A stretch of DNA of 64,000 nucleotides from Escherichia coli (GCF_003334765.1 NZ_QOWT01000010.1), one strand, 5' to 3'; shown: positions 9,147 to 63,846, counted from the first letter of the stretch. The notes: generated from the sequence alone by a model not told the origin. Numbers and translations: made by a program.

Positions 9147-10638
<1,492 letters not shown>

Positions 10639-10666
10639 GTGGCTTTTGAAATGGCGAGACAGAACT

Positions 10667-11545
10667 TTACTGACTCGCCGCAGCCAACTCTTCTTCTGAC
10701 AGCCCGGTAAAGCGCATGATGTCTGCAAGAGGAACTCCGGATTCAAGCATTATTTTGGCTATATGCAGGGCTTTGGATTGTTCCCCCTCCTGCCGCAATC
10801 TTTCCGCAATAGTCATTAAACTCTCCTTGTGTTTCGGTGAACGTTCGGCAACGCCGTCGATAAAATCGTTAAAACGTACAGCGTCGCCAGTTTGCAGTAT
10901 GTAATTAAACAGCCCTTTGATTTGTCTGTCATTAGCGTATCCACTACTTAATAAGCAGGCCATTTGCTCTACCAGCCCCATCAGGTCGCGTTGACGAATA
11001 TGTTTTTGAATTAACTCCAGCAGCGCCATACGTCGGTGCTGCATGATTTCATCATCAGGCATGACGGTGACATCAATCAGCGGAAATGCGGAGGCATAAA
11101 GCTGCCTTGCCAGTTTGGGATCGGCGAAACAATCCAGCCAACACAGCGAATAGGGATAGGGGCTTTCAATACCGTGGTAAAACAACAATGGCACCACCAT
11201 CGGCAACGTTTTGTATCCAGCATCAAGGTGATTTTGCATTGCGGCAATAGCGTAACGCATCATGCGAAATGCGATCAGTTTGTTTGAGGTGCTTTGATGT
11301 TCAATCAGACAATAGATGTATCCTGGTCCTTGTTCCGTTTTCACCGACCACAGCACATCGGAATAGCTTTCACGCAGATCGTCATCAATAAAGCTGCTCG
11401 ACTCCAGCTTGAGGGTTTTCATATCACAAAGCGCGTGAATGGGTGCCGGTAAATGAAACGCAAGAAAATCACGAGCCGTGTCCGGTTGGCGTAAAAAGAG
11501 TTTGAACAGCGCATCGTGTGGGGTGGAACTCTGCTTTTTGCTCAT
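10667..11545 (-). CDS. rpnA: Recombination-promoting nuclease RpnA (YhgA), transposase_31 / PD-(D/E)XK family
   Basis: 292-aa ORF; [33 protein letters not shown] recognised as YhgA; no flanking inverted repeats seen. Confidence 0.88.
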
Positions 11546-11688
11546 GGCGTTCCTTCACCTGTTGTTTGAATGCCGCGACTCTACGCGCCACTCCACACCT
11601 GTGTATTAGCGAGTTTTCATCCCTGCGAGATGCTTTCAAAGGAACTTACGCCGTGCTGCAAGAGTTGCATTTTTATGGAAAGCCGCAC

Positions 11689-11723
11689 GCAAAAAAGCCC
11701 GGATGCAGACGCATACCGGGCTT
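11689..11723 (-). terminator. Rho-independent terminator downstream of feoC
   Basis: On the minus strand AAGCCCGG-13 nt loop-CCGGGCTT followed by TTTTTT; lies 25-60 bp after the feoC stop. Confidence 0.7.
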
Positions 11724-11747
11724 TCCAAAACAGGCGATGGAGTAAGG

Positions 11748-11984
11748 TTAACGCAGCGCCCACCACTCGCGCAGACAGGCTTTTCCTTCCGGGCAGCTTT
11801 TACAACTGCCAGAGAGGCAGCCGTCAGGTTCTTCCTGAATCCGCACGGCTTTGCCCATACTTTCCAGTTGTTGCAGCATGGCGTTAATCATTGGCTGTGG
11901 AGTGTTCAATGTCTGGCTTATCTGGGCCGCTTCCATACGGCCCCGTAACGCCAGCAAATCGCGCACCTGAATAAGTGAAGCCAT
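11748..11984 (-). CDS. feoC: FeoC, ferrous iron transport transcriptional regulator-like protein
   Basis: 78 aa from ATG at 11984 ([17 protein letters not shown]...); ORF track extends 3 codons upstream via a non-ATG start; start overlaps feoB stop as TAATG. Confidence 0.88.
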
Positions 11985-14305
11985 TAATGGCAATCACCGG
12001 TGGTGCTGGCTGCGCAGCAACTGCTTACCGACTTGCGGGTTGCCAGCAGTTCGATATCCACCCGGCTACGCGCGCGGCGCAGCAGACCGATAACCACGAT
12101 GTTAAACAGGATAACCGCCAGAATGCACACCAGGCTGTAAGTTGGATGCTGACTGTAGCTGGCGACCTGATAGAACAATGTTGCCAGTGAGTAAGCGATA
12201 TTCAGCCCCCACAGGATGGAGAAGCCCATCCAGCCACGGCTTGATTCACGGGCGATAGCCCCCATCACCGAGATACATGGTACATACAGCAGGACGAAAA
12301 TCAGGTAGCTGTAAGCTGCTGCTGCGCTACCGAATTTCTGATCCATCACGCCCATCGCCCCGGTACCCATTTCGCCGTCGCCTTTGCTGGCTTCAATGGG
12401 GTTCATCAGTACGCTAAGGCTGAAGGTGTCTTTCAGGCTCTGCCAGGTTTCATCTATCGCACTGAACAGCTCTTCACCGAGGTTAAATTCTGCCGGATTG
12501 AACTCTTCGTCCTGAATATTTTCTGCGGTGTAGAGGGTGTTGAGCGTACCCACTACCACTTCTTTCGCCATGGCACCTGTAAACAGGCCAACCGTTGCCT
12601 GCCAGTTATCTTCATGCACGCCAATTGGCTTGAAGACCGGGGTGATCACCCGGCTGACGGACGCCAGCGCCGAGTCGTTGATGTTATCGACGATTTTCCC
12701 GCTCAGCGAGAAGCTGTTGAAAGCGCTCAGGAAAATGCTGACGATGATGATCACTTTACCAGCACGCAGAACGAAGCCTTTCAGACGCTGCCAGGTCTGG
12801 ATAATCAGGCTTTTAACGTGTGGTACATGATAGACCGGCAACTCCATGACAAACGGCGTCGCTTCACCGCGCATGATGGTGTACTTGAGCATCAGGCCAG
12901 TCAGCACCGCCATCACAATACCCAGCATATACAGCGAGAAGACCGCCAGCGCACCGTTCTGCCCGAAGAAGGCAGCCGCGAATACTGCGAAGATAGCCAG
13001 ACGCGCGCCGCAGGACATAAACGGTGCCATCATGATGGTCATCAGACGTTCACGCGGTGCATCAAGCGTACGTGCACCCATTACCGACGGTACGTTACAA
13101 CCGAAACCGACGATCAGCGGCACAAAGGATTTCCCCGGCAAGCCCAGCGCCTGCATCAGACGGTCCATCACAAACGCCGCACGCGCCATATACCCGGAGT
13201 CCTCAAGGAAGGAGAGGAACAGGTACATCATGCCAATCTGCGGCACCAGTGGCAGCACGGTGTTAATGCCGCCACCCAGGCCCTGGGCGAGGAAGATAGT
13301 CAGCCAGTCCGGGAAGTGGAGCGTGTAGCCAATCCATTGAATACCATGCACAAATAGCGCCACGGAGCCGACGTCAAACAGCGGCTGTAACGCCCCGCCG
13401 ATGTTGATAGCCAGCAGGAACATCAGGTACATCACAAAGAGGAAAATCGGCAGACCGAGGAAACGGTTGAGCACGATTTTATCTACCGCAGTGGTGAAAC
13501 GGCTGGGTTCTGCCGTCAGGGTGTTGCTTACCACATCACAGATGGCAGCAATGCACTGGTAACGCGCATCGGCAATGTGCAGCGCCGGATCGTCCATCTC
13601 ATTACGCAGACGGGCGAGGGCGGCATCCAGATGCTGCGACGCTTCACCGGCGTAGGCGCGGCTGTAGATATCGCCTTCCAGCATTTGCAGGCCCAGCCAG
13701 CGACGTTGTTTCAGCGGGATGTCGGAAGGCATCACTTTTGCCAGTGAATCTGCTTCGTTGAGCAGCGGCTGTGCGTAATGCACCAGTTCCACATTCTCGT
13801 TAGCTTTATAGCGATCAATCGCCAGCTTGAGCGCTTCAATACCGCGACCACGGGTTGAAACCAGCGGGATCACCGGACAGCCCAGACGCGCCGACAGAGC
13901 ATCAATTTCAATACGAATATTTTGCTTCTCGGCAATGTCGAGCATGTTCAGTGCCACAATGCAGGGAATGCCGAGTTCCAGCAGTTGTAGCGTCAGGTAC
14001 AGGTTACGCTCAAGGTTAGACGCATCCACCACGTTAATCAGCAGGTCGGCGTCGCCACTCAAAATGTAGTGACAGGCGATTTGCTCATCGAGCGAGGTCT
14101 GCGATGAGATGGTGGTCAGAGAATAGGTGCCGGGCAGGTCCACCAGCGTGACCTGATGATCGGTGGTGGAGAATTGCCCTTCTTTACGTTCGACGGTAAC
14201 GCCAGCCCAGTTACCTACACGCTGACGTGAGCCAGTGAGCTGGTTAAATAACGTTGTCTTGCCAGAATTTGGATTACCAATTAAGCCAATGGTTAATTTT
14301 TTCAT
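11984..14305 (-). CDS. feoB: Ferrous iron transporter FeoB (GTPase + permease)
   Basis: 773 aa from ATG at 14305 ([26 protein letters not shown]1 motif GNPNSGKT); ORF track adds 4 upstream codons. Confidence 0.95.
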
Positions 14306-43652: not shown

Positions 43653-43730
43653 AGCTCCCGACAAATCCACGTCGCACAACCTAAATATTCAAAAAAATGA
43701 ATATTTAAGGAACAGAAACGAGGCAACAAG

Positions 43731-63086: not shown

Positions 63087-63254
63087 GTGAAGAAACTCAC
63101 CGATAAGCAAAAGTCCCGTCTCTGGGAGCTTCAGCGTAATCGTAATTTTCAGGCCAGTCGCCGTCTTGAAGGCGTCGAGATGCCTTTAGTCACTCTTACT
63201 GCCGCAGAGGCTTTAGCGCGCCTTGAAGAGCTGAGGAGTCACTATGAGCGATAA
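63087..63254 (+). CDS. yhfG: YhfG / FicA-type antitoxin-like small protein (55 aa)
   Basis: Hand translation from GTG at 63087 (gggagg SD 8 nt upstream): [55 protein letters not shown]; contains SxxxEG (S24...E28-G29); overlaps the fic start by 11 nt. Below the ORF-track size cutoff. Confidence 0.72.
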
Positions 63255-63846
63255 ATTCGGCGAAGGGCGCGATCCGTATCTTTATCCAGGCCTTGATATC
63301 ATGCGTAACCGGCTGAACATCCGCCAGCAGCAGCGGCTGGAACAGGCCGCTTACGAAATGACGGCGCTGCGTGCTGCGACCATTGAGCTTGGTCCGCTGG
63401 TGCGCGGTTTACCGCATTTGCGAACTATCCATCGCCAGCTGTATCAGGATATTTTCGACTGGGCAGGGCAACTGCGTGAAGTTGATATTTATCAGGGTGA
63501 TACGCCGTTCTGCCACTTTGCTTATATCGAAAAAGAGGGCAATGCCCTGATGCAGGATCTGGAGGAAGAAGGTTATCTGGTTGGCCTGGAGAAAGCGAAG
63601 TTCGTCGAGCGGCTGGCGCATTACTATTGTGAAATCAACGTGCTGCATCCCTTCCGGGTGGGAAGTGGTCTGGCACAGCGGATCTTCTTCGAGCAACTGG
63701 CGATTCATGCCGGATATCAACTGAGCTGGCAGGGTATCGAAAAAGAGGCCTGGAATCAGGCAAATCAGAGTGGGGCAATGGGGGATCTCACCGCACTGCA
63801 GATGATATTTAGCAAAGTGGTAAGCGAAGCCGGGGAATCTGAGTAA
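63244..63846 (+). CDS. fic: Fic (FIC-domain protein, class I FicT-like)
   Basis: 200-aa [28 protein letters not shown]; FIC-motif position reads [12 protein letters not shown]. Confidence 0.92.

Follow-up and report, generated by a model that had tools for sequence, protein, structure and literature searches.

What kind of gene is rpnA (yhgA), which lies between bioH and feoC in Escherichia coli and carries the name of a transposase family with none of the hallmarks of an insertion sequence (IS)? We addressed this question for a 64,000-nucleotide stretch of E. coli DNA (GCF_003334765.1, NZ_QOWT01000010.1; hereafter the window), in which rpnA is a single long open reading frame (ORF) on the minus strand, at 10667-11545, with an ATG start, a TAA stop and 292 codons. 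Our answer is that rpnA is a single-ORF toxin-antitoxin gene: its full-length product, RpnA-L, is a PD-(D/E)XK endonuclease that is held inactive by RpnA-S, a second protein made from the 3ʹ end of the same reading frame. We put the probability of this architecture and mechanism at the rpnA locus at about 0.9, because the window is identical in sequence to the strain in which they were demonstrated; over 1.6 kb, the rpnA region matches the rpnA annotated in K-12 derivatives, among them DH5alpha and a derivative of MG1655, at 100% nucleotide identity. The gene is already known, and the window matches the published picture throughout. What we add is comparative only: conservation of Met244 and its Shine-Dalgarno sequence in syntenic orthologues, variation in tetrapeptide units and alleles, and deletions of the nuclease core over 5,426 genomes.

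One reading frame, two products

The key feature of rpnA is an in-frame start at Met244, which makes it a single-gene toxin-antitoxin module. An earlier note on this DNA had advised a search for an internal small ORF; one is present, with its own Shine-Dalgarno sequence and a product that corresponds to PDB 7TH0. The features on which the argument depends are as follows.

10667..11545, minus strand: rpnA full-length coding sequence, product RpnA-L, 292 amino acids, PD-(D/E)XK DNA endonuclease (toxin); from the ORF, the NCBIfam RpnA equivalog and identity to K-12
10667..10816, minus strand: rpnA-S, internal ORF in the same frame that opens at Met244 (ATG 10816-10814) and ends at the stop codon of rpnA, 49 amino acids, antitoxin and oligomerization module
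10823..10828, minus strand: internal Shine-Dalgarno sequence AAGGAG, formed by codons K240-E241, 6 nt ahead of the internal ATG; read from the sequence
10763..10792, minus strand: hypervariable point, codons ~252-261 (EGEQSKALH), site of tetrapeptide repeats (none in K-12) and C-terminal allele swaps; from the orthologue alignment
10919..11524, minus strand: codons of the Transposase_31 domain (PF04754), amino acids 8-209, with the nuclease core in the N-terminal part; Pfam E = 2e-91
11294..11359, minus strand: catalytic signature codons D63 (11359-11357), E82 (11302-11300) and Q84 (11296-11294; Q at the usual K position), all at the published positions

The translation of rpnA-S is identical to chain A of PDB 7TH0, named “RpnA”, at 49/49 residues. 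The C-terminus of an AlphaFold2 (AF2) model of RpnA superposes on that structure with a root-mean-square deviation of 0.5 Å and a template-modeling score of 0.91. Published experiments on rpnA cover the nuclease activity, the catalytic residues, the toxicity, the internal start, inhibition by RpnA-S, the stoichiometry of the complex and the structure of RpnA-S (Kingston 2017, PMC5350276; Zhong 2023, PMC10400941). The start at Met244 is used in vivo, as established from ribosome profiles taken in the presence of initiation inhibitors and from sequential peptide affinity (SPA) tagging, and differential RNA-seq located an internal transcription start site that gives a short internal transcript (Zhong 2023, PMC10400941). 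Mutation of the internal site (K240R+E241D+M244L) abolishes the RpnA-S signal, and RpnA-L made without RpnA-S inhibits growth (PMC10400941). RpnA-S, but not RpnB-S, blocks SOS induction by RpnA; it also stops cleavage of double- and single-stranded DNA in vitro, and it forms with RpnA-L an L2S2 complex of ~74 kDa that falls apart at pH 9-10 (PMC10400941). A relaxed scan within rpnA gave a weak σ70 candidate (8/12 matches) at 11073-11043, which we do not claim as the internal promoter.

Is the other part of the reading frame an intact nuclease? The assignment of the protein to the Rpn/Transposase_31 family, made in the earlier note, is well founded. The NCBIfam equivalog “recombination-promoting nuclease RpnA” (NF007361) matches residues 1-292 of 292 with 694.8 bits, above its cutoff of 583, and the Pfam match extends over model positions 1-202 of 203. 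The family is large; a search of 1.84 billion cluster representatives turned up 7,691 relatives with E ≤ 1e-3, of which 3,560 reach E ≤ 1e-10. We assessed conservation in an alignment of 77 full-length RpnA relatives that are 29-63% identical to RpnA. D11, D63, E82, H83 and D164 are each at least 90% conserved, and the members of the catalytic set (D11, D63, E82, Q84 and R94) are each kept in 65-75 of the 77 relatives, D63 being present in 75, E82 in 74 and Q84 in 65. All of the published functional residues (D11, D63, E82, Q84, R94, D165, K240, E241, M244 and H261) are intact at their published positions in the window. Substitutions D11A, D63A, E82A and Q84K in RpnA abolish recombination, toxicity and SOS induction alike (Kingston 2017, PMC5350276), and Mg2+-dependent DNA endonuclease activity has been published for the identical RpnA protein (PMC5350276; PMC10400941).

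The AF2 model, built on the alignment of the relatives, has a mean predicted local distance difference test score of 93.2. Its elements follow one another as helix 34-39, strand 40-47, strand 62-70, strand 73-84, helix 91-108 and strand 116-125, which is the alpha-beta-beta-beta-alpha-beta order expected for a PD-(D/E)XK core; D63 begins strand 2, and E82 and Q84 are on strand 3. Because a Foldseek search with the N-terminal domain of this model returned no convincing structural match, assignment of the PD-(D/E)XK fold rests on the published mutational and biochemical data. PADLOC v2 returned no match for either RpnA-L or RpnA-S, which shows merely that its 2023 library has no model for them. 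As read from the window and its relatives, all of the published elements are intact, the internal start is conserved and the C-terminal module hypervariable, and the gene has no transposon features.

How do the two products act together? RpnA-L (292 amino acids) is a Mg2+-dependent, Ca2+-stimulated DNA endonuclease with little sequence specificity, and, if unopposed, it damages the chromosome, induces the SOS response and inhibits growth. An internal promoter would give rise to a shorter transcript, on which AAGGAG and the ATG at Met244 direct synthesis of the 49-amino-acid RpnA-S. This protein is a three-helix bundle, the same as the domain at the C-terminus of RpnA-L but synthesized on its own and in excess. 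It dimerizes and pairs with the same domain of RpnA-L, giving the L2S2 complex in which DNA cleavage is blocked. Release of the nuclease would then lead to DNA cutting and, it has been proposed, to abortive infection; the L2S2 complex has been observed to dissociate at alkaline pH in vitro, and the trigger in vivo is presumed to be phage-derived. Phage protection was demonstrated with RpnP2, a paralogue encoded on a plasmid, and not with RpnA (PMC10400941). From RpnP2, the hypervariable specificity module and the genomic context, we would give roughly even odds to an anti-phage role of the chromosomal RpnA in K-12.

The gene in the window corresponds to RpnA-L/RpnA-S of E. coli K-12 (Zhong 2023, PNAS 120:e2307382120; Kingston 2017, J Bacteriol 199:e00787-16) in every respect compared: it is the same gene, with identical nucleotides, the same residues, the same internal Shine-Dalgarno sequence and ATG, and the same 49-amino-acid product. 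RpnP2-L/S, from a plasmid of strain ECOR13, belongs to the same family and has the same gene-within-gene design, in which a nuclease toxin is blocked by its own, separately made C-terminal domain. The two differ in that RpnP2 is plasmid-borne, strongly toxic without its S protein and protective against T-even phages, whereas RpnA is chromosomal and the least toxic of the paralogues. There is also a likeness to classical type II toxin-antitoxin systems such as MazEF: a protein antitoxin binds the toxin, the genes are horizontally mobile, and the toxin is lost with the antitoxin kept in populations. Unlike MazEF, rpnA has one ORF and not two genes, and its antitoxin corresponds to the toxin's own C-terminal part, read in the same frame. 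Inhibition is by pairing of like domains, and toxin and antitoxin must therefore co-evolve; moreover, the toxin seems to be freed by release of the antitoxin and not by its degradation. One annotated ORF can thus conceal a second product with an opposed function, and Rpn-family matches elsewhere are worth checking for an internal Shine-Dalgarno sequence and Met codon ahead of the last 45-100 codons.

Conservation and variation of the two products

The internal start is conserved well beyond E. coli. Every full-length syntenic orthologue from Citrobacter and Salmonella keeps Met244 together with an AAGGA motif 6-7 nt upstream, and AAGGA is kept in all 9 other syntenic orthologues or alleles in which the Met244 motif could be located. 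Met244 itself is found in 68/77 of the distant relatives (29-63% identity), and positions 240-241 across the 77 are mostly K/E/G/R and E/G/D, respectively, residues with purine-rich codons. The sequence that follows is far from constant. After G254, the syntenic orthologues differ by four-residue units (GLQE, GLQT, GLQQ), of which K-12 has none and the orthologues from Citrobacter and Salmonella have 2-6, with the maximum reached in Citrobacter. This pattern matches the published description of tetrapeptide-repeat variation in the Rpn C-terminal region, in which H261 was marked as the insertion point (PMC10400941).

We surveyed the bioH-feoC slot at 74 bioH loci, one genome per species, by mapping GntX, BioH, RpnA, FeoC and FeoB. 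An rpn gene occupies the slot in few taxa: E. coli, E. whittamii, E. albertii, several Citrobacter species, and Salmonella enterica subsp. diarizonae and arizonae. The gene is present as remnants only in E. albertii and is truncated in S. enterica subsp. arizonae. In E. whittamii it is split, at the position of K-12 10900/10901, by a 1.3-kb element of the IS200/IS605 type that encodes a 376-amino-acid TnpB/OrfB-like protein; here, a genuine IS lies inside a so-called transposase gene. In Klebsiella, Kluyvera, Leclercia, Kosakonia, Raoultella and Yersinia, the slot holds instead a gene for a signal-peptide protein of 89-94 amino acids (MKL.TGIVASLVIGSLSFGAFAAKE...), which by eye looks like the YdgH/BhsA/DUF1471 type, and in Enterobacter cloacae, Buttiauxella and Cedecea the bioH-feoC spacer is almost nil. 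The comparison of synteny in relatives that the earlier note had recommended thus reveals a slot that is variable or empty. Even where an rpn gene is present, it differs markedly: the syntenic Rpn proteins of Citrobacter and S. enterica subsp. diarizonae are ~60% identical to K-12 RpnA, as compared with 79-88% for BioH and 92-93% for FeoB. Such a low identity between conserved neighbors points to either fast evolution or same-site replacement, as was earlier proposed for rpnC (Kingston et al.; PMC5350276).

Variation among E. coli alleles is concentrated at the same point. Residues 1-254 of RpnA are at least 95% identical among them, and the tail is swapped in some strains. E. coli E105 has a replaced tail (...QEGFQKGIRAIAKTMLDAGVPLEDVL...). 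In E. coli 2021CK-01784, a ~215-bp insertion at K-12 10773/10783 (a repeat junction) provides a divergent S-form of 54 amino acids, and the former K-12-type 3ʹ end remains downstream as a remnant. A 33-amino-acid ORF with its own Shine-Dalgarno sequence is found in this strain between the new C-terminal module and the displaced remnant. Strain E105 also carries, between bioH and rpnA, a gene for a PemK/MazF-family toxin and a MazE-like gene with an annotated internal stop; this pair constitutes a second toxin-antitoxin unit in the slot.

The nuclease core can be lost while the 3ʹ end is retained. In-gene deletions in strains DFK.1 (~11029-11471 in K-12 coordinates) and NC101 (~11256-11509) remove the region of D63, E82 and Q84; the two are different, independent events, and both spare the internal Shine-Dalgarno sequence, Met244 and the RpnA-S frame. 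EC958 (ST131) has a DFK.1-like pattern, as judged from search coverage alone. The 5ʹ third of rpnA (codons 1-95, at least 80% coverage) is intact in 4,662/5,426 complete genomes (86%), and the K-12-type last 120 nt are present in 5,374/5,426 (99%); hence, ~14% of complete E. coli genomes are without the nuclease core. Loss of the toxin with retention of the antitoxin sequence is the expectation for a toxin-antitoxin module. One observation tempers this argument: a portion of the 3ʹ ends that were kept are displaced remnants that are not translated, and for this reason the counts of 5ʹ and 3ʹ retention do not prove selection for RpnA-S.

Could the slot itself be the unit of change? A speculative possibility, which we consider unlikely, is that the bioH-feoC slot is a small recombination hot spot at which the specificity/antitoxin cassette of RpnA is exchanged at G254-H261, leaving displaced 3ʹ remnants behind (as in 2021CK-01784), and from which the nuclease core is recurrently deleted with RpnA-S kept (as in ST131- and NC101-type strains). 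If so, orphan RpnA-S might be kept as an “anti-toxin vaccine” that guards against Rpn toxins arriving from outside, or might be kept because it has some other function.

Insertion-sequence hallmarks and rival explanations

The earlier note had claimed that rpnA lacks terminal inverted repeats and any obvious target-site duplication, and the tests that we applied agree. A repeat search (seed 7) found no inverted or direct repeat pair that brackets rpnA. We also compared the two 350-bp flanks using a custom ungapped local score and 300 dinucleotide shuffles. For inverted repeats, the best match spans 9 nt, with one arm within the coding sequence and the other in the feoC terminator, and was equalled in 144/300 shuffles; for direct repeats, it spans 8 nt and was equalled in 272/300. 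The repeats in the flanks are thus at chance level. An empty site is consistent with this result. In Escherichia sp. MOD1-EC7003, the convergent stop codons of bioH and feoC overlap in TTAA, and the site joins K-12 10627 to 11744, such that the 1.1-kb rpnA segment is missing in full, and the feoC terminator with it; comparison with this site revealed no duplicated target. One boundary pair, AGGGTGTA / AAGGTTAA, was considered as a target duplication against the empty site; it matches at 5/8 positions and was dismissed as too weak.

In the 5,425 E. coli genomes that gave a match, rpnA occupies a median of one place per genome and a maximum of two, and in every E. coli locus examined it lies between bioH and feoC. 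A Pfam domain search of RpnA found no DDE, HUH, serine or tyrosine recombinase domain. RpnA shares with IS and TnsA-type PD-(D/E)XK transposition proteins a probable PD-(D/E)XK catalytic fold that acts on DNA and a historical transposase label; unlike them, it has no element ends, target duplication or partner transposase, and is present in a single copy per genome. We know of no autonomous PD-(D/E)XK transposase. For rpn genes, Zhong et al. reported that inverted repeats and target duplications are lacking, that the ends vary and that there is no evidence for autonomous transposition (Zhong 2023, PMC10400941). Hence, the name “transposase_31” is a historical annotation and not a statement of ancestry, and annotations of this kind should not be taken as mobile elements.

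The gene nonetheless has a horizontal character. Its GC content is 47.6% (50.5% at third codon positions), as compared with 56.2% for bioH and 54.6% for feoB. Relatives of RpnA are found on 4,812/72,556 plasmid records, 3,023 of them predicted to be conjugative, and on 11/50,697 phage records, where each record set includes a few evident chromosomal contigs. These distributions fit cargo carried along by other elements, rather than a phage gene or an autonomous element.

What, then, of an intact or recently active IS with YhgA as its transposase? The family name, a second and sub-cutoff NCBIfam match to “ISNCY family transposase” (415 bits vs 583), a GC content below that of the neighboring genes and the patchy occupancy of the slot among Enterobacterales are the observations that would lead to such a reading. 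Set against them are flank repeats no better than chance, the empty site with no duplicated target, the low copy number with no multicopy spread, the missing recombinase domains, and the variable ends and lack of autonomous transposition reported for the family. We regard the active-IS reading as effectively refuted and its probability as negligible. That conclusion has already been published for exactly this gene (Kingston 2017, PMC5350276; Zhong 2023, PMC10400941). The earlier note had called rpnA a domesticated recombination-promoting nuclease, not an active element: that it is a nuclease rather than an active IS stands, and “domesticated”, which would presuppose that the gene came from an actual transposase, is unsupported.

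“Recombination-promoting nuclease” is itself no longer the best functional description of RpnA. A rival view that builds on Kingston (2017) would place its main role in RecA-independent recombination and gene acquisition, with the internal protein merely tuning the activity and phage defence no part of the chromosomal copy's role. When RpnA is overexpressed, RecA-independent recombination increases in a conjugal assay, and cleavage leaves 3ʹ-OH ends that are usable for template switching (PMC5350276). The C-terminal cassette swaps and displaced remnants at rpnA are, moreover, rearrangements that such an enzyme might cause, as Zhong et al. likewise speculate (PMC10400941). However, the phenotype was observed with overexpression constructs only, and these make RpnA-S as well (PMC10400941), purified RpnA co-expressed with RpnA-S has very low activity, and a hypervariable partner-specificity module together with enrichment near defence genes fits phage conflict better; we consider recombination distinctly unlikely as the main role. 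We are doubtful, too, of a view that sees in the rpnA of K-12 an addiction-type module, largely silent, selfish or decaying, that is of no current benefit to the host and persists because losing the antitoxin first would be lethal. This would accommodate the failure to detect RpnA-L from the chromosome and the position of RpnA as the least toxic paralogue (PMC10400941), as well as the genomes with the 3ʹ end but no nuclease core, the IS-disrupted pseudogene in E. whittamii and the remnants in E. albertii and S. enterica subsp. arizonae. It accords less well with a 5ʹ third that is intact in most complete genomes (86%), with catalytic residues that are conserved across the family, and with a C-terminal module that diversifies rather than simply decays. 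A nuclease toxin restrained by its own separately made C-terminal domain remains our preferred description of the locus.

Flanking features and the wider window

The stop codon of rpnA (10667-10669) faces that of bioH (9868-10638, plus strand; stop codon 10636-10638), and the gap between the convergent genes is exactly 28 bp, as the earlier note had it. On the other side, feoC lies at 11748-11984 on the minus strand, and 202 bp separate its stop codon (11748-11750) from the ATG of rpnA further downstream. The distance of 200 bp that had been measured from the feoC terminator is correct for the feoC stop codon; from the terminator itself, the start of rpnA is ~150 bp away. Four further features were recorded around the gene.

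~11692-11726, minus strand: feoC intrinsic terminator, a hairpin and U6 tract between the feoABC transcript and rpnA; free energy -28.9 kcal/mol, z = -3.75, 0/200 shuffles as stable
11578..11605, minus strand: weak candidate σ70 promoter for full-length rpnA, TACACA-16-TAGAGT, 8/12 matches; from the relaxed scan and not claimed
11551..11556, minus strand: Shine-Dalgarno sequence GAAGGA of full-length rpnA; read in the intergenic sequence
10653..10679, both strands: hairpin GGCGAG.CAG / CUG.CUCGCC between the convergent bioH and rpnA, whose loop contains the stop codon of rpnA; z = -2.4 on one strand and -2.8 on the other

A standard scan found no promoter-like σ70 site in 10300-12100. The hairpin at 10653-10679 has no U-tract on either strand and was not called by the terminator scan; bidirectional termination is a possible function. 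A search of the whole window against Rfam at gathering thresholds returned zero RNA families, and so no known antisense RNA or small RNA at rpnA. Two ORFs antisense to rpnA, at 10716-10904 and 11036-11287 on the plus strand, are without supporting evidence.

Over its full length, the window is colinear with DH5alpha at 99.97% identity, with 13 substitutions and one 5-nt indel at 43709; given these differences, it is K-12-like and not exactly DH5alpha. The indel is a TTCAA of DH5alpha that is missing from the window, between yhfY and yhfX. The RefSeq annotation of the colinear DH5alpha record has no transposase, integrase or IS across the 64 kb, in agreement with the earlier statement that rpnA is the only mobile-element-related coding sequence in the window. 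Another small module of the toxin/antitoxin-like kind is present at 63087-63846 on the plus strand, where yhfG and fic, encoding a YhfG family protein and a Fic AMP-transferase, overlap by 11 nt.
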